From an uncultured Pirellulales bacterium (GTDB lineage Bacteria; Planctomycetota; Phycisphaerae; Sedimentisphaerales; Anaerohalosphaeraceae): a stretch of 64,000 nucleotides of DNA. How positions within the stretch are numbered: position 1 is the stretch's first letter; every line of letters begins with the position of its first letter. The stretch spans positions 7,269 to 71,268 of the forward strand of contig CAZWMN010000009.1 of the NCBI GenBank assembly GCA_964635075.1. The letters run 5' to 3'. Made by a program: the position numbers and the translations under genes. Below, piece by piece: positions 48,428 through 62,536 of the stretch. Below the pieces are notes generated by a model. It did no database searches and was not told the origin of the DNA. It was given only the letters and a program-made list of their open reading frames with translations.

Positions 48428-48850
48428 CTACGCCAGCTTATACGCAATTTGCTCGTCTAAAATATCTTTGACCGTCAGCGCGATAATACTCTTGCCCGTC
48501 TTCTTGAAAAACGCCCCTATCTCGCTCATCGCGTCCGACGAAAAATCAAACGACACAAAAAATCCCTTCGTCCGGTCTTCACGCATCATCGCCGCCTCGA
48601 ATGCGTCAATATCCGGCCGCCCCACCTTCTCCTTCTGCTTGACCTGGATCGGATACCACACGTCCATAAACTCCAATTCCCCCTCTTTCCGCTTCGGCGC
48701 CGCCGACACCGGGTAAATCCGCCCATCGATCCCCATATCCCCCACCTGCGCCTTATTCGGTATTCCCCCAATCGCAATCACCGCCCAGTTCTCAAACTCG
48801 AACGGCGGAAGCTCACGCAGCTTGTCCATTGACCACGGCAAATCACGCAC
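48428..48850 (-). CDS. Mrr-cat/PD-(D/E)xK restriction-endonuclease-domain protein, possibly the C-terminal remnant of a methyltransferase-nuclease fusion
   Basis: The FEFENWAV...GDMGIDG...IQVKQ pattern matches the nuclease module found at the C-terminus of some N6/N4 DNA methyltransferases. Confidence 0.55.
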   Translation of the reverse strand: MRDLPWSMDKLRELPPFEFENWAVIAIGGIPNKAQVGDMGIDGRIYPVSAAPKRKEGELEFMDVWYPIQVKQKEKVGRPDIDAFEAAMMREDRTKGFFVSFDFSSDAMSEIGAFFKKTGKSIIALTVKDILDEQIAYKLA

Positions 48851-48856
48851 CCCATA

Positions 48857-48962
48857 AGCTCTCCCCCTGTAAAGGGGGAGTACCGCGAATAAGCCAACCC
48901 AAGCTCTCCCCCTGCAAAGGGGGAGTACCGCGAAGCGGGGAGGGGGTATTATTCATCCCGCC
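48857..48962. repeat. agctctccccctgcaaagggggagtaccgcgaa... repeats (one partial and one full copy)
   Basis: Partial copy at 48857-48889 and full 62-bp copy at 48901-48962. The same 62-bp unit recurs at 49364-49424. Confidence 0.85.
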
Positions 48963-49348
48963 TAAGGCGTTCCTCTTTTCTCCTGCCATCCAAAATGTTT
49001 TCGTATCTGATTCAGCACTTCTTGGGGATTATCGAATACCCAGTGATTCACAAACCGCAGCACCAAAACACCATATTGTTTTAGAAACAAATCCCGTTCC
49101 CGGTCATATTCAATCGCCTCGGCATTAAAATGCGGAGCGCCATCCAGTTCTATTGCCAGCCGTTCCGCCGGACAGTAAAAATCAAGAATATAGCCGCCAA
49201 AGCTGTGCTGTCGTTTAAACCGCCTGCCGTCAAGCTGTTTACTTTTCAAATAGCTCCACATCTTCGCTTCAGCCGGTGTCAACGCGTTTCGCAATTCTCG
49301 TCGAAACGTTTTCATCTCTGGATGATTATTCAAACATTGCTTGTCCAT
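48962..49348 (-). CDS. DUF559 (Vsr-like) endonuclease-domain protein
   Basis: LTPAEAKMWSYLK...RFKRQHSFGGYILDFYCPAERLAIELDG...D..RD..L...G..VLRF, the diagnostic DUF559 pattern. Start taken at MDKQC. Confidence 0.8.
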   Translation of the reverse strand: MDKQCLNNHPEMKTFRRELRNALTPAEAKMWSYLKSKQLDGRRFKRQHSFGGYILDFYCPAERLAIELDGAPHFNAEAIEYDRERDLFLKQYGVLVLRFVNHWVFDNPQEVLNQIRKHFGWQEKRGTP

Positions 49349-49363
49349 AATCTCTCTCAAATT

Positions 49364-49424
49364 AGCTCTCCCCCTGCAAAGGGGGAGTACGGCGAAGCCG
49401 GGAGGGGGTGTCATTCATCCCGCC
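49364..49424. repeat. 62-bp direct repeat partner flanking the DUF559 gene
   Basis: agctctccccctgcaaagggggagtacggcgaagccgggagggggtgtcattcatcccgcc matches 48901-48962. Confidence 0.85.
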
Positions 49425-49483
49425 AAAAGTGAACCTCACTTTCTAGATCCATCCAAAACAATATCATATTCTTTCGAAATTGC

Positions 49484-50257
49484 TTACAATCCCTCGAAGC
49501 CACATCGCAGACGATGTCGTTGCAAAAACTCTGGTTTTGGTAAATGTTCAATGGGTTTCCTAAACTGTTTGGTATTGTTTAATAAAACTATAATAAACTG
49601 ACTTGCGCGAGGATATTTCTTCAAAATCGTAAGATCATCTGAAAGAGATAAATATCCCTTTTCAAATAACGCATCATGAAATTTACAAAGGCACATGATA
49701 TTCGACAAGAAACCCCGACACTCCGCATCCTCTGCCCAACCTACAACGTGACTGGTCACCAATAAGGAAACATCATTCACATCACATAAGGCGCATGTTG
49801 AAGAATAATTTATTAGTGTTAACTCCCTGAGCCTATCCTGCCCTCGTCGTCTACGTGATATGGCAAGTTCATCTCCAGTGTCGATGCATCCAATTCGCAG
49901 ACGGTTTGCTTTTACTAAAGAATCAATCCCTTCATCAGTTCCTTCGAAAGTCTCAATATCTACAATATCTACGGATGTTCGTATCTTCTCCCTGCCCTTA
50001 GACGTAATGTGCCATACACGGCGAGCCTTCTCGACATATCCTAATTTTACCATATATCTATTTACCACTTCACGCAAACTTGCGCGTCCTTGTTCAGAAA
50101 GTTGTTGACCTATACGCTTCTCCATGGCTTGATAAATGTCAGCCATTTTCGCGTCTCCCCCATTGTTTTCGATTGCATGAAGAACTACAGGAACTTGATC
50201 TTGCCGGGAAAACCCGGCTTCCGATGCAGTTACTCCATATTGTTGTGTTGGGCTCAT
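49484..50257 (-). CDS. HNH_2-type endonuclease with N-terminal winged-helix (Mrr_N-like) domain
   Basis: CALCDV...LLVTSHVVGW...NIMCLCKFHDALFEKGYL fits the PF13391-type HNH. The N-terminal region resembles Mrr N-terminal wHTH. Confidence 0.65.
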   Translation of the reverse strand: MSPTQQYGVTASEAGFSRQDQVPVVLHAIENNGGDAKMADIYQAMEKRIGQQLSEQGRASLREVVNRYMVKLGYVEKARRVWHITSKGREKIRTSVDIVDIETFEGTDEGIDSLVKANRLRIGCIDTGDELAISRRRRGQDRLRELTLINYSSTCALCDVNDVSLLVTSHVVGWAEDAECRGFLSNIMCLCKFHDALFEKGYLSLSDDLTILKKYPRASQFIIVLLNNTKQFRKPIEHLPKPEFLQRHRLRCGFEGL

Positions 50258-50274
50258 GTTTCAACCTTTTTGTG

Positions 50275-50403
50275 TTAAGTTTTTGCACGATTGCGGTTGC
50301 TGTTAAACGGCGGGTCAATATAAATCAAATCCACGCACTCGCCCGGCAGCTTCTTCAATTGTTCCAGATTATCCCCGCAATACACCACCCGCGTATCAAC
50401 CAC
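50275..50403 (-). pseudogene. N-terminal stub of a beta-class N6/N4 DNA methyltransferase
   Basis: VYCGDNLEQLKKLPGECVDLIYIDPPFNS carries motif IV (DPPF). It is followed by a stop after 9 more codons, so the rest of the methyltransferase is missing. Confidence 0.55.
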
Positions 50404-50590
50404 CGCCGACGGCTTGCCCGTATGTAGCACAGTCTCCTGTAGCACAGCCGCCCCCGGCTGTGATATTTCCGATGAAATAGGAGCCGTCTGATGTAGGGGC
50501 AGACCCCCGTGTCTGCCCGAATGGGCCTTTTGCCCTTTAACTTTTGCCTTTTTTTCTACTGCCTTCTTCTTCGCCATTTTGTATTCCCTT

Positions 50591-50614
50591 GTCATTCTGG
50601 ATTTAATCCAGAAC
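50591..50614. repeat. short palindromic repeat, ATTC-N-GAAT family variant
   Basis: gtcattctggatttaatccagaac. Confidence 0.7.
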
Positions 50615-50899: not shown

Positions 50900-53125
50900 T
50901 TAAGCGTTTTCTTGAGGGCGATAATGTACACTTAAAATACTATATGGATATTCATTTCTATCAATATTGACACCTATTATCAAACAACTATGTACATGGC
51001 TCTTAGAGAATATATTATCTGCAAGATTATTCATGTAATTATATCGGTTCTCTTTATTTGCCTCTCGGTATGCTACTAATGCTACCGCCTCATCCCTCCA
51101 ATTAGCTGGCAAGCAAACCGCTGAGTTTATATGCTCAGGTGTCTGCCAATTCTTCTTGACATGTTTCTTTATTGACTTGAAATTTTTAGTTATATTTAGT
51201 TGGTCATCAGGGCTTATATTGAGAAGCATAACAGATGCTTCCAACCAGCTATGGGGTGCTACTTGCTCAATTCTTCTTCGTATATCAGACCACCACTTAG
51301 TTATTCTCAAGCTTGGCTTCTTAATGTGTTCGTCCCGCGCTAATGCGATATAATAATCATCGATATCTTTCGATATTCCTGTAAGCATCAACCTAGTCTT
51401 GCCAATTTCAACGTCTCCAATATTCAATCCTGTCTCGAGATATAGTCCAAGTAAATCTAATTCGTCCCCATGATATATGGCTTTCCCTTCAAGTTCAGTC
51501 CGACGCATTAGATAGTGAATTATTTCACTGCTGGTAAGCAAATCAAATATAACTTGTAAATCTGCCAATAATATCGTTGGTGCAACCGGTAAACAGTCAA
51601 TTAGCCACCCTGTTTTTTTGATTTGCATGATATTGGTTTGTATTGTTGCAAACTGTTCCAATGTGACAGAAAGTCGAATATATTTATGAATGTTATTAAT
51701 GTTAAAGGGCAATTGTTTGCCAAGAGCATCTTCGCTATGGATAGTTTTAAACTTCTTAATCCTTTCAAATAGACGATACGATTGATTTGAAGGTTCAATT
51801 ACAAGCTCTTCAATATGTTGCTTTACTCTTTTTGGCGCACCTCTTAAAGCAGGCTTAGAGATTCTTCCAGATTTTGCTTCGATGAATATAAGATAAGAAT
51901 CTATTTGGACTATAAGATCGTTTTCATATTGTATTCCCGACTCAACCCATTTGAAATTCTTTATTATTTTGCTCTTTGGAAAGGTTTTCTGGAAAAGCTC
52001 ATATATTTCTTCTTCTAAGAACTGTGCCCTGCGAGTATTGATTTTCTTTCTAGCCTCTTCGTTATCAACTATCAAACCGTCCATTATCTCAAAAATATAA
52101 CTAAAAAATACTTGGGGTATAGAACTGAAGTATTTACTGTCTGAAAGTTTCACAAAAGGCCTTGTCCAGACCGGATTGTCCATGAAAACATGTTCTCTGT
52201 CTGCATTTTTTAAGTCGCCAGGTTGAATGCTTAACTTCGTCAATATTCCATCAAGAATTCTTTTGTCTAATTTACATCTTAATGCAAGCTCTTTTGTCGA
52301 ATATGTGAAAAAGTCGGGAAGCCGAAGGTCAGAGTAACTCAAAATGAGTTGAAGAACACCTTCTAAGGGCATTTTCTTTACTTTAATAAATTCAATAAGT
52401 CTTTGTGGGGAATCTTTCATGCTTGGAAATATTTCATAATACTTTTTTACAACATTTTCAATTTCTTTCTCCTTGAATACTAAATGTAAACGATTCCGAT
52501 ATTCATTTACTTTGATTTCCATATCAGAAATCAACGTTTTAATTAATTCAATGATATTTGTTGCAGTTATACCATGTTGTTTTTCATATAGAGAGTCAAG
52601 CGGGGCATACATTTTTGTTGCGGTATCTATCACTTGTCTATAATGTCCCCAATTACGTACATATTGTGTATTCTGTCTTATATTTTCTTGTAAAGATAAA
52701 ACGGCTTTTTCTTGTTTCGTATTCGCTTGTTGTATTTGAACTAATCTTTTTTGAGAAAAAGAGGTTGATACTTTAATTAAAGAATCCCATATATCTTGGA
52801 TAAACTGTGGTTGTGCTGGAGTATATGATATTTTATCTTTTGGAAGACCTAATAAAAGTGCCTGTGCTATTTCTACATGTGCTTGAGTAAGCGGTTGAGC
52901 ATCGCCTTTCTTCCTTTTTTCTTCTTCGTTTACACCCCTAAATAGACCATATAAAGATAATACTGATAATAAATGTAACGGATCATAAGAGCTAAATAAA
53001 TTCAATAAGTGACCTAAAGTATCTGCGAATTCTTTTTCATAATCAAGGCCTGATTTTATCAAACTGTCCCTAAAGACTTCTTTCGGTACATCTTTAAATG
53101 GATTATCGTATTTATAAAACTTCAA
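50900..53125 (-). CDS. 741-aa uncharacterised protein with central PD-(D/E)xK/NERD-like motif
   Basis: Long, strongly AT-rich ORF with a TTG start and aaggtg SD. The core YENDLIVQIDSYLIFIEAKSGRI fits D...(D/E)xK. No P-loop and no TM segment. Confidence 0.75.
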   Translation of the reverse strand: MKFYKYDNPFKDVPKEVFRDSLIKSGLDYEKEFADTLGHLLNLFSSYDPLHLLSVLSLYGLFRGVNEEEKRKKGDAQPLTQAHVEIAQALLLGLPKDKISYTPAQPQFIQDIWDSLIKVSTSFSQKRLVQIQQANTKQEKAVLSLQENIRQNTQYVRNWGHYRQVIDTATKMYAPLDSLYEKQHGITATNIIELIKTLISDMEIKVNEYRNRLHLVFKEKEIENVVKKYYEIFPSMKDSPQRLIEFIKVKKMPLEGVLQLILSYSDLRLPDFFTYSTKELALRCKLDKRILDGILTKLSIQPGDLKNADREHVFMDNPVWTRPFVKLSDSKYFSSIPQVFFSYIFEIMDGLIVDNEEARKKINTRRAQFLEEEIYELFQKTFPKSKIIKNFKWVESGIQYENDLIVQIDSYLIFIEAKSGRISKPALRGAPKRVKQHIEELVIEPSNQSYRLFERIKKFKTIHSEDALGKQLPFNINNIHKYIRLSVTLEQFATIQTNIMQIKKTGWLIDCLPVAPTILLADLQVIFDLLTSSEIIHYLMRRTELEGKAIYHGDELDLLGLYLETGLNIGDVEIGKTRLMLTGISKDIDDYYIALARDEHIKKPSLRITKWWSDIRRRIEQVAPHSWLEASVMLLNISPDDQLNITKNFKSIKKHVKKNWQTPEHINSAVCLPANWRDEAVALVAYREANKENRYNYMNNLADNIFSKSHVHSCLIIGVNIDRNEYPYSILSVHYRPQENA

Positions 53126-53259
53126 ATTGACACCTTCGAATCTTTAATTTTACATAAGGAAGGGAAATTTCCCGCACCCAATTTTCTCTGTTTTTTCTTG
53201 TCTCACCATAGCTTCAGCGACGGCGGACTTGTCCTTCGTAGCCTTGTGCGAAGAAGGAT

Positions 53260-54380
53260 CGCCCAATTTTTCTTTTTATTTTTCTTGTCCGACTCGTCCC
53301 ACATGTCCGACCTGTCCGAAAAGTCCGACTTTTACTTTTTTCCCTTGCGCCACCGACGATGATTTTCCCGCACACCTTTCGCCCATATTATACCCTATTT
53401 CTCTCTTTTTCAAACCCCCTTTTTCCCACTTTTGCCGTCTCGCTCGGACCGGCGGGCGGATGATTTCTCGCAGCATAACTATGGCTTAGCCACTTTTGGG
53501 CGGCTGATAAGCCGCAAGGAGGGAGATCGGTCTATTTTCAGCTTTCCGCTGCCGCGATAGCGGTATGGAACAATTTCTGCGGACAGCATAGAAGCTCGCT
53601 TCGAGAATGGCCGCGGGAATTGGGCTAAAGACGATTCGCAGAATCGCTGCGGAAAGCTCTCTGTGCCGCCCTGAGTCCTCTGAGGCAAAAAAATCCGTGA
53701 AAATCCGTGTTAATCCGTGGTTTATGTTATTTCGACACAAGTGCGATTGCACAATCTTGCTATCTCTAAAAATTCCATAAATTTTCTTCTCATTGTCTCA
53801 CAAGCACTTACGTTTCGCGTTAGCGTCCCGGCGCGCCGGGGTTCGACACGAACACGCAACTCCGCCCTATATAGGAGGCGCCTCTTTTGCGCCCCAGAAA
53901 GGAGCATGACATGTCACAGTGATTTCATCAACCGCGGCTTGTCCGCTCAATGCGATTGAATAATCATTAATCATTTATCACTAATCATTTGATAGCGCAG
54001 CGATGCCGCGCGCACCCACTACAAAACAGGTTTTAAAATGCTGTCAAAAGTGAGTCAAAATATGACAAAAAAAGCCAATTCAAACCGACTTGTCGCGACA
54101 AGTCGTCCCGAATCCCCTTTATGGGGTGAGGGACCTGATGATCTCAGTCGTCGGCTCTGCCGACTCCATACTTTCTTGTCCCGCCATAGCCTTGGCGACG
54201 GCGGATGCCATTTTCTTTTTCCCTTTTTACTTATCTCTGTGCAATCTGTGGAATCTGTGGTTCCGTCTGTTTTTACCAAACAAACCCAATTTTTTCACGA
54301 CCAAATATGCGTTATCAATATCAAAAACGCAGAAATGAAGGCCAAAAACCGACCCAAAAAAACGAAACGAACCCAATTAT
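53260..54380. repeat. left arm of about 1.1-kb imperfect inverted repeat (noncoding, modular)
   Basis: Blocks in the order a-f mirror blocks at 57615-58660. Examples are gatgccgcgcgcacccactacaaaacaggttttaaaatgctgtcaaaagtgagtcaaaatatgacaaaaaaagccaattcaaacc and ...ttccgcagcgattctgcgaatc.... Confidence 0.8.
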
Positions 54381-54388
54381 GGATAACT

Positions 54389-54652
54389 TTACTTGTATCC
54401 TTCGACGTGATTTTGGGTATATTTTTCTATCGCTTTTTCCAGGTCCACATCGTTGACATTGGCTAATGTACACAGCCAAGCCAAGACATCGGCGAATTCT
54501 TCTTCTTTGTTTTTGTGGTCGTCACCGGTCAATGCCGTCGCCAACTCGCCGACTTCTTCGACAAACCACATAAACGTCGCCGCGGTACCGCGCTCGCGGT
54601 CACGCTTGCCGTATTTTTTATCGATAAAATTTTGAAATTCGCGCAGTTCCAT
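54389..54652 (-). CDS. MazG-like nucleotide pyrophosphohydrolase (small, single domain)
   Basis: EEVGELATAL and EEFADVLAWLCTLA metal-binding helices. Start taken at MELREFQ. Confidence 0.7.
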   Translation of the reverse strand: MELREFQNFIDKKYGKRDRERGTAATFMWFVEEVGELATALTGDDHKNKEEEFADVLAWLCTLANVNDVDLEKAIEKYTQNHVEGYK

Positions 54653-54809
54653 AATTGTTTTTCCCACGGCCAAGCTTATCCTGCCCACGCAAGTCCTTCG
54701 ACAGGCTCAGCGACTGTCTTAAAAATCAAGCGATTTTTATTAAATTCGGAATCCGAAGCACGAAATCCGAAACAAATTCAAAATCTGAAATAACCCAAAT
54801 TCAAAACAT

Positions 54810-54953: not shown

Positions 54954-55355
54954 TTATTCCCAGCCGAGCATCTTGCTGAGTTTTGCTCTTTCGTAAATCG
55001 CTTTCACCTCGTCGGTGGCCCTGCGGCAGACTTCTTCCATCTTCATACTGAACGGAGCATTGTTAGTCTGCTCGGCCAGGTGCAGATGACTGTGCAGCGG
55101 GCCATCGACCGCTTCAATGATTTCCAGCAGCGTGATGCTTTCAGCCGGGCGGGCCAGGAAAAATCCGCCTCGCGGGCCGCGCTTGCTGCGAAGCACATTG
55201 GCCCGAACCAGTTGTTGCAGAATCTTGAGCAGGTATTCAAGCGGAATGGTGTATTCCTTGGAAACCCGGGCCGCCAAAACCGCACCTTCTTTGTAGTTCA
55301 TTGCGATGTAGCCGACCGCCACGAGAGCATAACCAGTGGATCTGCTGATTTTCAT
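54954..55355 (-). CDS. Rrf2-family transcriptional regulator
   Basis: MKISRSTGYALVAVGYIA... wHTH start typical of Rrf2/IscR/CymR. It is divergent from metX. Confidence 0.85.
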   Translation of the reverse strand: MKISRSTGYALVAVGYIAMNYKEGAVLAARVSKEYTIPLEYLLKILQQLVRANVLRSKRGPRGGFFLARPAESITLLEIIEAVDGPLHSHLHLAEQTNNAPFSMKMEEVCRRATDEVKAIYERAKLSKMLGWE

Positions 55356-55799
55356 ATTCAGACCTCCTGAATATATTGAAAGTTATGTGGTTCGTTTCGC
55401 CGATTGTTTTTCTACTATCGGACCTTGTATTCTATCTATTCTATGCCATTTTCCACGACAGAGATTCTACACATTCTGTCTTACCTGCCTCTGTATAGTA
55501 CAATTATCAGAAAAAAGTTCAAGAGTAGCAAGGGAAATTTTATCGAAAAACAAAAATTTTGATTAAAAAGACTATGTATATCTCGTATGGTAAAATGAGT
55601 CATATAAGATGTAAGGCGAATTTCACTGCAATTTTTGAAGCCAAAACCATCATTTTTTCATTAAAAAACGAGGTTTATGAGAAAACAAGCAAATTTGAGC
55701 TACACTTTCATTTGGGCATATAGGAGGGGTCGAGAGGCATCCTTGTTCTCTTTCATTAAGCCCTTTACAAGATGTTATAGAGCATTTACAATTTCCCGG

Positions 55800-57611
55800 A
55801 TGGAAAAAGACCTGAAAAACTCTGTTGGCGTTGTTGAAAGCTACAAGGTTCGCGTGGTGGAGCAGAACAGTCCGCTCGTTCTGCAAAGCGGTAAGACACT
55901 GGGCCCCATCGATGTAGTTTATGAAACCTACGGACAGCTAAGCCCTGACAAAGATAATGCGGTTTTGATTTGCCATGCGTTGTCCGGCGATGCCCATGTC
56001 GCCGGCTATCACAGTCCCGGCGACCGCAAAGCCGGCTGGTGGGATATTATGATTGGGCCGGGCAAACCCATTGATACCAACAAGTACTTTGTCATCTGCT
56101 CCAATTTTCTGGGCGGATGCAGCGGCACGACGGGACCGTCGGATATCAACCCGGCAACGGGAAAACCTTATGGTCTGGACTTTCCGATTATCACCATCGA
56201 AGACATTGTAAAAGTTCAGAAACTTCTATTGGACAAACTCGGCATCTCGCGTCTGCTTTCCGTCATCGGCGGTTCGATGGGCGGAATGCAGGTGCTGCAA
56301 TGGGCGATTGCGTATCCGGAGTTTGTGGATTCGGCGATGTGCATCGCGGGCACGACACGGCTGAACACGCAGTCCATCGCGTTTGACGCGGTGGGGCGAA
56401 ACGCCATTCTGGCCGACCCGAATTTCAATAATGGCCAATACCACGGCAGCGAAGCTCCCGCCCGCGGCTTAGGCATCGCCCGGATGATCGGGCATATTAC
56501 GTATTTGTCCGAACAGTCCATGCGCGAAAAATTCGGACGCCAGCTCTACGACGCGGAAAAGTACAAATATGATTTTGATTCCGAATTCGCCGTGGAGACT
56601 TATCTGGATTATCAGGGACAGAGTTTTGTCGAACGGTTTGACGCTAACAGCTATCTATATATCACCAAGGCGATGGACTATTTTGACCTGAACCGTGAGT
56701 ATGGCTCGGTTCGCAGCGCCTTTGCCGGGACGCGCAGCCGGTTTCTGGTCATCAGTTTTTCGAGCGACTGGCTGTTTCCGTCGGCGCAGTCCGAGGAAAT
56801 TGTCGAGGCGCTGAGCGCCGAAGGCAAGGACGTGACCTACTGCAATATCCACTCTCCTTACGGACACGACGCCTTTCTGCTGGAGTGTCCGTTGCAGGAC
56901 AAGCTCATCGCGGGATTTCTTGAATTGACGCTGCATCGCATCCGCACGGGACAGAAATGTCTTTGTGAAAAAGCCCCGTCCAAGCGGCTTAAAGCCATCG
57001 AACGCTCCAAACGGGCGAGGGTGGATTATGAATTGATTGACGCGGTGATTGCATCAAACAGCCGGGTGCTGGATTTAGGCTGCGGCGACGGCGAACTGCT
57101 GGCCCGCCTCGTGACGGATAAAAATGTCGATGGGCTGGGCATTGAGCTGGACGAAGACCTTGTGGTGCATTGCGTCGGACGAGGCTTGTCGGTGCTGCAT
57201 CGGGATATCGAGCGGGGATTATCGCAGTTTGCCACCGACAGTTTTGATTACGTGATTCTGTCGCAGACTTTGCAGACGCTGCGCGACCCGGAAAAGGTCA
57301 TCAGGGAACTGCTTCGCGTCGGCAAGAAGGTGATTGTAAGCTTTCCCAATTTCGCCCACTGGGCGTGTCGGTTGCAGATGTTCTTTGGCGGTCGTGCGCC
57401 GCAGACGCGGCAGTTGCCGTTCCGCTGGCACAATTCGCCTAATATACATTTTCTGTCGCTCAAGGATTTTGACCGTTTTTGCGCCGAGTTGAATATTCAT
57501 ATCGAAAAGAAGATCCCACTGGGCCGATTCAGTACTGTAGCGGTCAGACTGCTGCCCAATCTGCTGGCTTCACAAGCCGTCTATATCACCAGCAAATACC
57601 AAAACGGGTAG
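55800..57611 (+). CDS. metX: homoserine O-acetyltransferase fused to MetW
   Basis: MetX alpha/beta-hydrolase part (GGSMGGMQVLQW nucleophile elbow, SDWLFP). It continues without a stop into a MetW-type methyltransferase-fold domain (VLDLGCGDGELLARL). Start taken at MEKDL. Confidence 0.9.
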   Translation: MEKDLKNSVGVVESYKVRVVEQNSPLVLQSGKTLGPIDVVYETYGQLSPDKDNAVLICHALSGDAHVAGYHSPGDRKAGWWDIMIGPGKPIDTNKYFVICSNFLGGCSGTTGPSDINPATGKPYGLDFPIITIEDIVKVQKLLLDKLGISRLLSVIGGSMGGMQVLQWAIAYPEFVDSAMCIAGTTRLNTQSIAFDAVGRNAILADPNFNNGQYHGSEAPARGLGIARMIGHITYLSEQSMREKFGRQLYDAEKYKYDFDSEFAVETYLDYQGQSFVERFDANSYLYITKAMDYFDLNREYGSVRSAFAGTRSRFLVISFSSDWLFPSAQSEEIVEALSAEGKDVTYCNIHSPYGHDAFLLECPLQDKLIAGFLELTLHRIRTGQKCLCEKAPSKRLKAIERSKRARVDYELIDAVIASNSRVLDLGCGDGELLARLVTDKNVDGLGIELDEDLVVHCVGRGLSVLHRDIERGLSQFATDSFDYVILSQTLQTLRDPEKVIRELLRVGKKVIVSFPNFAHWACRLQMFFGGRAPQTRQLPFRWHNSPNIHFLSLKDFDRFCAELNIHIEKKIPLGRFSTVAVRLLPNLLASQAVYITSKYQNG

Positions 57612-57614
57612 ATT

Positions 57615-58660
57615 TTCCTTTGGGCAAAATTGGGTTCGTTTCGTTTTTTTGGGTCGGTTTTTGGCCTCCATTTCCGCGTTTTTGATATTGATAACGCATA
57701 TTTGGTCGTGAAAAAATTGGGTTCGTTTTTTTTGAATAAACGAGAGACCAGAGATAAGAGATCAAGACCACGGTCAAACAATCCTTCGGCATTGCTCAGG
57801 ACAAGGTTTGGCCGTGCCACCCACCCCTTCAGGTCGTTGGGTTCGATTGGGTTTGAATTGGCTTTTTTTGTCATATTTTGACTCACTTTTGACACGTTTT
57901 TAAAATCTGTTTTGCAGTGGGTGCGCGCGGCATCTATGAGATGCTCTGCGAGAAGCCAGAAGCCAGTAGTCTGAAGTCAGAATATGGTCGGCCTGCGGCC
58001 GGGCTGATCTTACACAGTACTATGACACGTCAAACTCCTTCAAAATAGTTTTTAGTTTTGAGTTTCTGGATTCCCGCCTGTGCGGGAATGACAGCACCAC
58101 AAGACGCAACCTATGCGTCTCCTATATGGGGCGGACTTGCACGGCGGTGTCGAAAATTCGTGATTTTTCGGGGGCAGAAAAGCCGTAAGTCGTTATCGGA
58201 TAGAGAGTTAAAAATTTTTAGAATTTTCAGGAATAGCAGGATAGTGCAATCGCTATTAGAACCGAGCGAATAGTTGATAGTGAATAGAAAAAGAGGATTT
58301 TAGACGGGATTTACAGGATAAACAAGATTTTTTGCCACCGAGGGCGCAGAGCGGCACAGAGAGCTTTCCGCAGCGATTCTGCGAATCTTCTTTGGCTCCA
58401 TTTCCGCGGCTTTACTCCAAACGAGTTTGTCTGTCAGCCCCAAAAACGGTTCCATCCCGCTGTCGGATTCGGCAGGCTCACCACAGGCGCGGCAGCGGAA
58501 AGCGGAAAATTGTATATTGATAATCCCTTGGGGATAAATTGTAGATTGTAAAATGTAGAGGAAGATTGTATAATTTAGGGGAAATCGGTTTTTGGCATAT
58601 TTAAGAATCATCTTTGATCAGCAGGGCGAAAGAAAAAAGTTAAAAGAAAATTGGGCGAGA
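57615..58660. repeat. right arm of about 1.1-kb imperfect inverted repeat
   Basis: Reverse-complement blocks of 53260-54380 in mirrored order. It also contains one ATTCCC-N8-GGGAAT palindrome (58066-58092) that is absent from the left arm. Confidence 0.8.
58546..58574 (+). promoter_or_regulatory. sigma-70-type promoter candidate with extended -10
   Basis: TTGTAA, a 17-nt spacer ending in TG, then TATAAT. It lies about 175 nt upstream of the 58751 ORF. A homologous gtataat lies in the left arm (53387-53392, minus strand) facing the 741-aa gene. Confidence 0.45.
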
Positions 58661-58750: not shown

Positions 58751-59860
58751 ATGGGTCCAGCAATCCTTGTTGATAAAAGTACACTTCAATTACTTTCTGT
58801 CAGAGAAGTTTTTTATTTACGCCAATATTATAATGTAGTCTTATGTTCAACTCTATATTATGAAATTCTTGGAGATATAACAAAACATAAAGATTATGAA
58901 GCATCTAAAAAGGAAGTACTAAAGGTATCAAGGAAAATATATGGGCATTCCACCTGCTTTACAACAAAATATCAAGAAATGTTGGAAGCAGAATTAATTG
59001 GGTATGAAATTCCTATGGATAGAAGACCATTATTATCAGGTGGAAAGGAAGTTGTAGATGGTAATGGAGAAAGAGTCGTGTTGTTTGATGAACCACATGA
59101 ATATGAGGCACTCAGAAAATGGACTAGTGGGGAATTTAGCAAAGAAGAAATGTCTTGGGCTGAGGATTATAGAAAATCAATTCAGCAAATCAAATTAGAT
59201 ATTGCCAAGCTAAATTCTGAATATATGGATGCTCGCGATGCAAGCGAGCTAAAAAAATATATAGATAAATTAATAGATGACTCTGATAATCAGTTAGAGT
59301 ATTTACAATTTATATTAAAAAAAACAGGGAAAGACCAACCATTTAGAGATAAGATATGCAACATCTGGCTTAATAGGGGGATGCCTAGAATAAAAGATTT
59401 TGCTCCATATTCTTATTATTTCTTAACAGTTTCATTTGCCTTTTATTGTGGAGTAGCAAAAGATATATTTGGCACTAAAAATACAAATATTATTGACTTG
59501 GAATATATATACTATTTACCATTTTGTAGTGTATTTACTTCTAATGATAAGTTTTTAAAGACAATATCAAATATATTTCTATCTGATGATCAGGATTTTA
59601 TATGGGGAGAGGAGCTTAAAAATGATTTAAAGGCTTTCTGTGATTATTGGAATGAAAAAGGGGAAAAAGCAAGATTTAGTTATCAAGAAGAGTATGGAGG
59701 TTATCCGCCTGATATTCCAAATTCTATAACATGTAAAATATGGGGTAAATGGGCTGGAGAAAGAAGAAAAAAAGAAAAAATGACATCTGAAAGAAACCAG
59801 GAAATTATGAAAGAAATTGAACCTCTACTGGATCAATTTAAAAAGAAAGAGAAGGGGTGA
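58751..59860 (+). CDS. 369-aa uncharacterised protein, PIN-like ends with a large helical insert
   Basis: Strongly AT-rich. The N-terminus ILVDKSTLQLL...LYYEILGD and the C-proximal IIDLEYIYYLPFCSVFTSNDKF resemble the first and last acidic-residue strands of PIN nucleases. The assignment is tentative. Confidence 0.7.
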   Translation: MGPAILVDKSTLQLLSVREVFYLRQYYNVVLCSTLYYEILGDITKHKDYEASKKEVLKVSRKIYGHSTCFTTKYQEMLEAELIGYEIPMDRRPLLSGGKEVVDGNGERVVLFDEPHEYEALRKWTSGEFSKEEMSWAEDYRKSIQQIKLDIAKLNSEYMDARDASELKKYIDKLIDDSDNQLEYLQFILKKTGKDQPFRDKICNIWLNRGMPRIKDFAPYSYYFLTVSFAFYCGVAKDIFGTKNTNIIDLEYIYYLPFCSVFTSNDKFLKTISNIFLSDDQDFIWGEELKNDLKAFCDYWNEKGEKARFSYQEEYGGYPPDIPNSITCKIWGKWAGERRKKEKMTSERNQEIMKEIEPLLDQFKKKEKG

Positions 59861-59873
59861 GAGGGAGTTTTTT

Positions 59874-60461
59874 ATGAAAGAAAACATTTTATTTACCAAA
59901 TGTAAAAATAGTGCAAAACTAAAAAGTAAAATAGTATTTCCAAAAGAAATATATGATACAAAGCAGCAGCTTACTTTTTTTGATTTCAATTACGCAGATA
60001 AATACAAGCAGTTTTTGTGTGAGACATTCTATCTAAACAAAGAGGTATTTAACCATACAATGGCAGGAGTAATCATTGGTTTCGGACCAGATAATATTAA
60101 AAAGATAAGCAGTTCAGTCAAAAAGATATTGAATGAACTTAAGCGAAAGTACATATTTATTGAAGCCGGAGGGAAAACATTTATACAATGCGTTAAATAT
60201 CATACAGGTAAATATTGTGCAACAAATTCCGATGCACTCTCTATCTTAAAAAACATTATGTTAAATACAAATACTGTCGTTGTTTTCAATGAATTTTCAA
60301 AATGTAAAACAAAAGGCGACAAAAAATCTCTTATGAGATGTATTATTAAAATAGGAGACCGTAAAGAAAATCCTGTTCCTGACTTGATATTTATTGACTA
60401 TGCCAAGTTTTATTACGAATCAAAAAGTCTATTATTGCCTTATATAAGGTGCATTGTATAG
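59874..60461 (+). CDS. 195-aa uncharacterised protein, partner of the PIN-like ORF
   Basis: SD gagggag 7 nt upstream of the ATG and a 13-nt gap after the previous stop. It shares the AT-rich composition and has no recognisable motif. Confidence 0.65.
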   Translation: MKENILFTKCKNSAKLKSKIVFPKEIYDTKQQLTFFDFNYADKYKQFLCETFYLNKEVFNHTMAGVIIGFGPDNIKKISSSVKKILNELKRKYIFIEAGGKTFIQCVKYHTGKYCATNSDALSILKNIMLNTNTVVVFNEFSKCKTKGDKKSLMRCIIKIGDRKENPVPDLIFIDYAKFYYESKSLLLPYIRCIV

Positions 60462-60509: not shown

Positions 60510-60860
60510 ATGCCGCCAAAATTTGTAAAGACCGTTCGAGAAGAGTTGTATTACGAGTATGCGGTAATAAAATCAAAAATCAAAGTGCAAATATCAAAAT
60601 TAAGGAAGCCTTCGGCGACTGTTTAAGCAGACCCCTCACCCGCAAGGGGATTCGGGGTGACGGGATGGGTTGACGTGAGGATTTGTCGCGATATACAAGG
60701 TTGGTGGCGGGTAAGTATCTCAAGGAATTGTTTGACCTGCATGACAGCCGGGGGACGCTGGATGTGAGCGTTGACAATCTGACGACGCTATGCCCGGCGT
60801 GCAAGAATCCGCCGGTCTGCCGGCAGTGGGAGAAGGTCAGAGAATCCCTATGGGACAAGT
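60510..60860 (+). pseudogene. fragments of an HNH endonuclease gene
   Basis: A 38-codon head (MPPKFVKTVREELYYEYAVIK) resembles the start of a common HNH family. A later frame gives LHDSRGTLDVSVDNLTTLCPACKN, a decayed HNH C-terminus. The two pieces are out of frame. Confidence 0.35.
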
Positions 60861-60920
60861 CCCTGGGGGATAAATCCCTGGGGGATAAATCCCTGGGGGA
60901 TAAATCCCTGGGGGATAAAT
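60846..60920. repeat. 15-bp tandem repeat ccctgggggataaat, four perfect copies plus one diverged
   Basis: Seen directly. Each unit contains the small palindrome ggga-taaa-tccc. A single related copy lies at about 58529-58548. Confidence 0.9.
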
Positions 60921-62183: not shown

Positions 62184-62258
<75 letters not shown>

Positions 62259-62263
62259 TTGAA

Positions 62264-62298
62264 ATTGACGATTGACGATTGACGATTGACGATTGAAT
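62264..62298. repeat. heptamer tandem repeat (attgacg)x4 plus attgaat
   Basis: Seen directly between the two tRNAs. Confidence 0.9.
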
Positions 62299-62395
62299 CC
62301 AATGGGTGAGTATCAGGCGATAACCGGGCTTGATGCGATTGATGATACGGATAAATAGTCAATAATCATTTATCAATAATCAATTGCAAGGGCCC

Positions 62396-62468
62396 GGGGA
62401 CGTAGCTCAGTTGGGAGAGCGCCGGCTTTGCAAGCCAGAGGTCGTGGGTTCGACTCCCATCGTCTCCA
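62396..62468 (+). tRNA. tRNA-Ala (anticodon UGC)
   Basis: Acceptor ggggacg/cgtctcc with the G3:U70 pair, anticodon loop ttTGCaa and T loop ttcgact. There is one C-A mismatch in the anticodon stem. Confidence 0.9.
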
Positions 62469-62536
62469 CTGCGGCGTTAGAACAAAATAAAGGCTTATGC
62501 GGTTTTGCGGCGGTATGAGCAGAACCGAGGCAATAA

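Follow-up and report, generated by a model that had tools for sequence, protein, structure and literature searches.

Introduction

Upx is a single-gene defence system, reportedly described as such by Gao et al. in 2020. It constitutes an experimentally demonstrated instance of defence by a single PD-(D/E)xK protein (PMC13099982, PMC13601566), a polypeptide of 1,272 amino acids organized in N-terminal, middle and C-terminal domains, with a canonical D1161/E1176/K1178 core at its C-terminal end (residues 1121-1272) and 3'-5' exonuclease activity on single-stranded DNA (PMC13099982), which is activated by phage large terminases (PMC13601566). The finding of a gene embedded in an immune operon has been validated as a predictor of defence function, a criterion known as guilt-by-embedding (bioRxiv 10.1101/2024.01.29.577857; PMC12255303), and the PDC candidates are those of Payne et al. 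2024. In this work we analyzed a gene encoding a 741-residue protein, located in a 64,000-nucleotide stretch of DNA (hereafter, the window) from an uncultured Pirellulales bacterium (assembly GCA_964635075.1, contig CAZWMN010000009.1). An initial annotation of the window had put this protein forward as an orphan with a nuclease core and as a candidate single-gene defence factor. The gene is intact and belongs to a large family, as yet unnamed, whose ~750-residue products stand alone, and the places that the genes of this family occupy in genomes suggest a role in defence.

A predicted PD-(D/E)xK core with a conserved active site

The AlphaFold2 (AF2) model of the 741-residue protein, built from an alignment of 49 sequences, presented a predicted local distance difference test score (pLDDT) of 88.2 and a predicted template modelling score of 0.88, with pLDDT values of ~90 in its central domain. 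This domain outlines a core with alpha-beta-beta-beta-alpha-beta order, composed of a helix (356-381), three strands (386-395, 398-408 and 411-418), a second helix (431-462) and a further strand (481-488). E371 maps to the first helix, E401 and D403 to the second strand, E416 and K418 to the third strand and Q448 to the second helix. Both the fold and the placement of an aspartate on the second strand and a (D/E)xK motif on the third are those of the PD-(D/E)xK superfamily. Foldseek searches against the PDB with the predicted model matched VC1899, Cdn1, Can2 and R.BspD6I at probabilities of 0.97-0.99, with further matches to R2 RLE, McrC, AF1548 and Bax1, and the nuclease core first proposed from a single motif was thus recovered as a fold. 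Sequence searches against the PDB with the protein, with the full profile and with a profile of the core only (352-566) returned no meaningful match, and a search of a viral structure library returned nothing at E <= 1e-3, with weak generic PD-(D/E)xK matches only.

Conservation analysis among 251 members of the family showed E371 to be present in 250, and D403, E416, K418 and Q448 in every one of them. These five residues are also retained in four distant relatives, from Salimicrobium, Rhizobium, Streptomyces and the archaeon Halobaculum. The motif singled out in the initial annotation, YENDLIVQIDSYLIFIEAKSGRI, does occur at residue 400, with a shift in the assignment of its catalytic aspartate. 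D409, the aspartate of QID, is conserved in 241 of the 251 members and has been lost in the distant relatives, and for this reason the conservation pattern identifies D403, the aspartate of YEND, as the probable catalytic residue. Other invariant residues (N317, R428, G429, Y538, R542, E555 and P604) widen the conserved surface beyond the minimal core, and conservation peaks at residues 300-330 and 390-570, making the nuclease domain the most conserved stretch of the protein. According to the model, the protein has a PD-(D/E)xK (restriction-endonuclease-like) core with a complete predicted metal-binding and catalytic set, and we infer from its sequence and predicted structure that it would cleave DNA in a Mg2+-dependent manner.

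Searches for other functional elements supported the earlier view that the protein lacks a transmembrane segment and a P-loop. No credible transmembrane segment was detected by hydrophobicity or in the AF2 model, and the most hydrophobic 19-mer (residues 508-526; Kyte-Doolittle score 1.7) is modeled as a buried strand plus helix. A Walker-A-like string, GDVEIGKT, is present at residues 570-577, but it was rejected as a P-loop because its GK[ST] portion is not conserved among the 251 relatives. A HEPN-like RxxxxH reading of VRNWGH (156-161) was likewise discarded, given that its histidine is not conserved and the family consensus at this position is Y/F.

Size and distribution of the family

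A word-indexed search for homologs (E <= 1e-3) identified 504 sequences. Among the best 120 of these 504, nearly all are full length (730-820 residues) with 37-65% identity, no Pfam domain is present and all the names given are 'hypothetical protein'. An exhaustive profile search over 1.84 billion representatives of clusters defined at 50% identity identified 3,651 representatives at E <= 1e-3 and 1,202 at E <= 1e-30, and among the matches listed almost all span 730-790 residues and align end to end. Sampling one genome per species, relatives were found to be encoded in 267 of 185,579 species (about 0.14%). With these numbers of homologs, cluster representatives and species, the protein cannot be regarded as an orphan.

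More than ten phyla carry the family. Its hosts include Cyanobacteria, Alpha-, Beta-, Gamma- and Deltaproteobacteria, Planctomycetota, Latescibacterota, Gemmatimonadota, Nitrospirota, Bacillota, Chloroflexota, Ignavibacteria and Campylobacterales, with cultured representatives among strains of Pseudomonas, Halomonas, Alcanivorax, Bradyrhizobium, Sphingomonas and Maridesulfovibrio. Distant relatives are plasmid- or megaplasmid-borne in Salimicrobium, Rhizobium, Streptomyces and the archaeon Halobaculum. Distant plasmid relatives align only as far as residue ~546, and three of the five plasmid relatives are aligned only in part (residues ~29-546 or ~290-546).

Scans of the protein against Pfam and NCBIfam returned no match, and the 49 aligned members, when scanned against Pfam, yielded matches at chance level only. 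Domain fusions were considered in over-long members (P0182, with 1,136 residues, P0104, P0009 and P0164) and rejected, as no Pfam domain was detected in them. A literature search found no paper describing the family or its architecture.

Family genes are solitary, mobile and often adjacent to immune genes

The genomic neighborhood of the family was analyzed in 86 loci, clustering 610 neighbor proteins and collecting 895 small open reading frames (ORFs). No conserved partner gene was detected in these loci, in which the largest neighbor cluster spans five loci and reflects synteny within one lineage, and no small ORF is shared among the 895; the absence of a conserved neighbor agrees with the original depiction of a single-gene unit without a partner. 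Terminal repeats, conserved flanking sequences and a conserved recombinase partner were not found at the family loci either. The GC content of the family gene is on average 7.5 points below that of its flanks, and lower than it in 86% of 76 loci. Overall, the behavior of the family is that of an accessory gene with horizontal mobility.

Several of the neighbors belong to immune systems. The commonest Pfam domains among 139 immediate neighbors, in raw counts that were not scaled to a genome-wide baseline, were Methylase_S (5), NTP_transf_2 (3) and Mrr_cat, TaqI_C and ResIII (2 each), and those among 139 neighbors at a distance of two to three genes were Eco57I (4), RVT_1 (3), GGDEF (3) and N6_Mtase, SLFN_AlbA_2 and SIR2_2 (2 each). 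In loci from Latescibacterota (L047), Gemmatimonadota (L085) and Ignavibacteriaceae (L029), the family gene is flanked by hsdS and a verified hsdR, nested inside a type I restriction-modification (R-M) operon as in guilt-by-embedding, and the L029 copy starts within hsdS, with an overlap of 4 nt. The embedded copies from Latescibacterota and Gemmatimonadota form one clade, with 58-82% identity, and that of L029 shares just ~30% identity with it, which indicates that embedding in type I R-M operons arose at least two times independently. Elsewhere, the gene directly upstream encodes a type IIG R-M enzyme (L039 and L096) or ZorD (L017), and a SIR2_2 gene is adjacent in some loci. Eco57I and ResIII genes, an integrase remnant and an EVE protein lie near the family gene in L097, and in L004 it resides in an integrase-primase island. 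Insertion sequence neighbors also occur at some loci, toxin-antitoxin genes are adjacent in L002, L003 and L091 and within ~2.5 kb in L095, and the defence-rich plasmid pSJ25 carries a family copy. A conventional type II restriction arrangement was not found, as there is no cognate methyltransferase and the methylases nearby are of type I or type IIG, with nucleases of their own.

Some of the loci encode additional proteins. In the clade embedded in type I operons, the family gene is always followed by a gene (L047, 10235-11272; L050, 10313-11302; L085, 10241-11314) encoding a protein of 329-357 residues (~345) that is 71-74% identical between phyla and has no Pfam match. This recurring gene is confined to the single clade and may be a clade-specific partner of the embedded nuclease. 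The L085 operon also encodes a PIN_4 protein (505 residues) and a 517-residue protein with no assigned family. In two Pseudomonas loci (L071, 10394-14215; L083, 10413-14231) the family gene is directly followed by one encoding a protein of 1,272-1,273 residues, which may be another uncharacterized large accessory protein. Its length is that of Upx, but this identification was rejected because it has no PADLOC match. On plasmid pRt932 of Rhizobium tumorigenes (L088, 10085-13512), a distant relative of 748 residues lies ~2 kb from genes for a DNA adenine methylase and a DGQHR-domain (DndB/Dpd-like) protein, which suggests a DNA-modification-based defence cluster nearby.

Conserved flanking regions and a loose resemblance to Upx

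The core is preceded by ~350 mostly helical residues and followed by ~175-300 residues of alpha/beta structure, with invariant polar residues on both sides. The near-invariant polar residues of the N-terminal region (Q81, E85, Q88, R127, E147, R150, T153, R157, N158 and W159) would point to a defined binding or regulatory site and not to a mere scaffold, and we propose that this helical region could act as a regulatory or sensor module. In the segment that links it to the core, N317 is conserved in all 251 members and also retained in distant relatives, and the helix-helix-strand-strand order of the model (residues 271-352) may confer on this segment a winged-helix-like character.

No convincing PDB or viral fold match was obtained for the N-terminal region, except for a loose one to Upx. 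This protein (PDB 9wuf) ranked first among the Foldseek matches of the full model (E = 7e-4, probability 1.0, 612 columns, TM-scores 0.26/0.18). When residues 1-470 were re-predicted (pLDDT 85.8) and searched again, Upx was still the top match and the sole long alignment of high probability (E = 0.05, probability 0.95, TM-scores 0.33/0.17), and on this account the structural resemblance appears to take in the helical region before the core, if loosely. The 9wuf sequence was unmatched at E <= 10 in PDB sequence and profile searches.

Proposed role and alternative explanations

The reading that we favor, with roughly even confidence, is that the gene encodes a regulated single-gene DNA nuclease of a new family, acting in defence against phages or plasmids. 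The flanking domains would keep the nuclease off, or direct it, and such gating would let the cell carry the gene without a methylase or an antitoxin. For it to be tolerated in these conditions, the nuclease would have to be gated by its N- and C-terminal domains or act only on a feature that host DNA does not possess, and gating seems preferable in view of the structural match to Upx and of the lack of a recognizable DNA-modification reader. In an Upx-like mode, which we hold to be the likeliest one within this reading, the non-catalytic domains would sense an infection cue that unleashes the nuclease, a refinement that we put forward only tentatively. We consider it unlikely that the family represents a new and widespread class of single-protein immune sensor-nucleases and a distant structural relative of Upx (a 'mini-Upx'), in which the N- and C-terminal domains would detect a conserved phage component, or the failing of neighboring restriction systems, and release the central DNase.

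Several results weigh against a gated defence nuclease. The likeness to Upx is weak, with TM-scores of 0.26-0.33, an E-value that rises from 7e-4 to 0.05 upon truncation and no sequence signal, and the non-catalytic domains are fairly well conserved, which is less typical of fast-evolving sensors of phage proteins. None of the 5,027 models of PADLOC 2.0.0, which presumably cover Upx, Shedu, HamA, Cap4, GajA, Kiwa and the PDC candidates, matches the protein at E <= 1; this lack of fit to known defence families had been anticipated in the initial annotation. A search of 50,697 phage records found no family member, and only five plasmid records have a match, one of them full length. As to genomic context, five of the six loci embedded in type I operons belong to one clade, the neighbor families are known from raw counts, and the association with defence is partial: the expectation that homologs sit in defence islands holds for many loci, but in L005, L092 and L094 the neighbors are exclusively housekeeping genes.

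The main alternative to Upx-like gating is a constitutively active enzyme resembling type IV restriction, which would cut DNA bearing a foreign feature, such as modified bases, and use its flanks as a DNA reader. A solitary nuclease that lacks a cognate methylase and often has type I and type IIG R-M genes as neighbors, as is the case for Mrr and McrBC in Escherichia coli, would fit this description, and so would well-conserved non-catalytic domains whose invariant polar residues are those expected of a nucleic acid-binding surface; in the window itself, the neighbors include an Mrr_N-HNH enzyme and an Mrr_cat fragment. The N- and C-terminal domains could in principle read modified DNA, but neither Pfam nor Foldseek recognized in the protein a modified-base reader (SRA, EVE/PUA, YTH or DUF3427-type) or a clear DNA-binding domain, and no NTPase module is present. 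We consider this explanation unlikely. A function serving the gene itself or a mobile element (homing-like propagation, addiction, exclusion of competitors, or integration and excision of islands) would account for the patchy taxonomic spread, for a GC content below that of the flanks, for insertion as a lone gene between housekeeping genes and for the integrase, primase or insertion sequence neighbors of some loci. It is quite improbable, given the lack of terminal repeats, conserved flanks and a conserved recombinase partner, the absence from phage records and rarity on plasmids, and a size of 750 residues with three conserved regions, far above that of homing endonucleases.

Many PD-(D/E)xK proteins are repair enzymes, and some family loci lie among core genes (pheS, surE, dnaA-dnaN-gyrB and purine biosynthesis), as might be expected of a cellular nuclease with a niche housekeeping role in DNA repair, recombination or RNA processing. 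A gene found in ~0.14% of species genomes from unrelated phyla, with no conserved synteny, with foreign composition in most loci and repeatedly embedded in or adjoining immune systems, is however very unlikely to fulfill such a role. Regarding the copy in the window, its location in an island of gene fragments, its TTG start and the lack of ~20 N-terminal residues seen in most homologs could denote a gene in decay that no longer functions, as with the truncated methylase and Mrr fragment beside it. We deem this extremely improbable, since the frame is uninterrupted over 741 codons and preceded by a Shine-Dalgarno-like site, the family-invariant residues are all present, the model is confident from end to end and other family members are also ~740 residues long.

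The gene and its surroundings in the window

The complete ORF and its AT-richness are as first described: its GC content is 34.0% (28% at third codon positions, GC3), with 49.4% for the window and 55% (GC3 69%) for rho, and the NCBI annotation of a 71.7-kb MAG contig includes an identical 741-residue product. The rho gene on that contig groups with sequences of Planctomycetota/Anaerohalosphaeraceae. Alignment A1, which includes the protein, contains 45 invariant columns, all of them by definition present in it, and the extra ~20 N-terminal residues of most homologs are missing from it. A TATAAT sequence had been placed in the left arm of an inverted repeat, pointing at the gene. The sequence is real, 262 nt upstream of the start codon, but it falls ~140 nt outside the well-aligned arm, and the region has no excess of promoter-like matches over chance (13, vs 10.1 +/- 3.3 in shuffles), so the argument for a promoter is not sustained. 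The coordinates of these and other features are given in Table 1.

Table 1. Features of the 741-residue protein gene and of its surroundings, in window coordinates.
Feature	Position	Strand	Details
Gene for 741-residue protein, complete	50900..53125	-	TTG start at 53125-53123, stop included; from ORF list
Shine-Dalgarno-like AAGGTG	53131..53136	-	5 nt upstream of TTG start; read directly off the sequence, putative function
N-terminal all-helical region	52316..53125	-	residues ~1-270; AF2 secondary structure, pLDDT
Small mixed alpha/beta linker	52070..52315	-	residues ~271-352; short strands, invariant N317
PD-(D/E)xK nuclease domain (predicted)	51428..52060	-	residues ~356-566; AF2, Foldseek, conservation
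Motif YENDLIVQIDSYLIFIEAKSGRI	51860..51928	-	residues 400-422; contains probable catalytic D403 and E416-x-K418
C-terminal alpha/beta region	50903..51427	-	residues ~567-741; AF2; family-specific, poorly kept in distant relatives
TATAAT	53387-53392	-	
Truncated DNA methyltransferase N-terminus	50275-50595	-	106-residue ORF; Pfam, PADLOC
Mrr_N + HNH endonuclease	49484-50257	-	Pfam, PADLOC
DUF559/Vsr-like endonuclease	48962-49414	-	Pfam, PADLOC
Mrr_cat fragment	48428-48850	-	Pfam, PADLOC
GC-rich direct repeats	48856-48975 / 49363-49437		74 nt, 88% identity
Inverted repeat arms	53534-54385 and 57620-58510		imperfect, ~850-890 nt
MazG-like gene	54389-54688	-	between repeat arms
Rrf2 regulator	54954-55355	-	between repeat arms
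Fused MetX-MetW	55677-57611	+	between repeat arms
369-residue protein	58751-59860	+	AT-rich
214-residue protein	59817-60461	+	AT-rich
15-nt tandem unit AATCCCTGGGGGATA	60843-60920		at least 5 copies
Degenerate copy of 15-nt unit	58507-58539		near end of right repeat arm
tRNA-Ile(GAT) + tRNA-Ala(TGC)	62184-62469		usual rRNA-spacer pair

Restriction-type genes and remnants, identified with Pfam and PADLOC, directly follow the gene on the minus strand (48428..50595) in a co-directional array with the gene at its head, which gives substance to the defence-type context claimed for the window. The 106-residue ORF of this array matches only the first ~40 residues of type II/III DNA methyltransferases, DPPF motif included, and ends just before the Mrr_N-HNH gene. 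As this ORF is a truncated methylase, the adjacent HNH enzyme lacks an intact cognate methylase here. The DUF559/Vsr-like gene is flanked by the GC-rich direct repeats, which contain the hairpin CTCCCCCTGCAAAGGGGGAG and have a third, 34-nt copy, and it may be a small cassette that was inserted or duplicated.

The large inverted repeat upstream consists of blocks with 80-96% complementarity and internal indels, and a short ORF lies in each of its arms, the two starting almost identically (MLSKVSQNMTKKANSN and MSKVSQNMTKKANSN). AT-rich genes of unknown function lie just beyond both arms. Those past the right arm form a second AT-rich pair (30-39% GC), whose products have no Pfam or PADLOC match. 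The 369-residue protein is the sole member of its cluster in a collection of 15 billion proteins and, judging from these searches, appears to be a better candidate orphan than the 741-residue protein. An Rfam scan of the 47-62 kb region identified no RNA family, inverted repeat included, and no 16S rRNA; a tRNA-Ile/tRNA-Ala pair with no 16S rRNA in this region would fit an rRNA operon of the unlinked type. This tRNA pair is found a few kb downstream of the AT-rich islands.

Comparison with known systems

Stand-alone PD-(D/E)xK nucleases are a known kind of defence protein, and the family described here and its architecture, with a central core and conserved flanks, are absent from Pfam, NCBIfam and PADLOC 2.0.0. 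If the favored reading is correct, an unnamed defence family with 3,651 representatives of 50%-identity clusters and members in 267 species would join the known immune repertoire, in the form of a compact nuclease encoded by one gene and with two conserved domains yet to be explained. Homologs in cultured, genetically tractable bacteria make the family testable, and a 'mini-Upx' class, should it exist, would be an experimentally tractable defence family present in more than ten phyla and in cultured Pseudomonas, Halomonas, Alcanivorax and Bradyrhizobium. Were the defence function to fail, this would still be a large uncharacterized nuclease family worth a database entry.

The core of the protein had been described as NERD-like. 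This holds for the short context of the motif (a hydrophobic strand, an aspartate, ~12 residues and ExK) and not for family membership, since the NERD model of Pfam (PF08378) misses the protein at E <= 1 and matches a single one of the 49 aligned members, at E = 0.033. NERD proteins are often found in stress or defence contexts, and as a rule are far shorter or carry a fused helicase or kinase module. The nuclease domains of the CARF effectors Can2/Card1, VC1899 and Cdn1 share the same core and E / D / ExK arrangement over ~170-230 Foldseek columns. Unlike them, the 741-residue protein has neither a CARF or Rossmann sensor nor an association with CRISPR or CBASS; identity is 10-15%, and sequence searches gave no match.

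The niche between hsdS and hsdR is also occupied by PrrC, RloC, DarTG2, PARIS and PDC candidates, but these are unrelated proteins (an anticodon nuclease with an ABC ATPase, an ADP-ribosyltransferase toxin-antitoxin pair and others), and most members of the present family are not embedded. Type IV enzymes of the Mrr type are likewise solitary PD-(D/E)xK nucleases found without a methylase beside type I R-M. The 741-residue protein differs from Mrr in its size and flanking domains and in the lack of a recognized winged-helix reader, and it is not matched by the Mrr_cat and Mrr_N models of Pfam.

Upx and the 741-residue protein are both single polypeptides with no NTPase, no partner gene and a broad, patchy distribution, and both join a D...ExK core to large domains that sequence searches leave unannotated. 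They differ in that Upx comprises 1,272 residues, with its core at the extreme C-terminus, and the protein analyzed here comprises 741, with its core in a central position (356-566); a second, atypical nuclease site in the N-terminal domain is a feature of Upx. Size, core position and the lack of a sequence signal therefore prevent the protein from being filed as Upx. As a defence nuclease, the family would provide a second and smaller example for comparison with the unusual mechanism of Upx, which by analogy appears to be the closest functional counterpart of the 741-residue protein.

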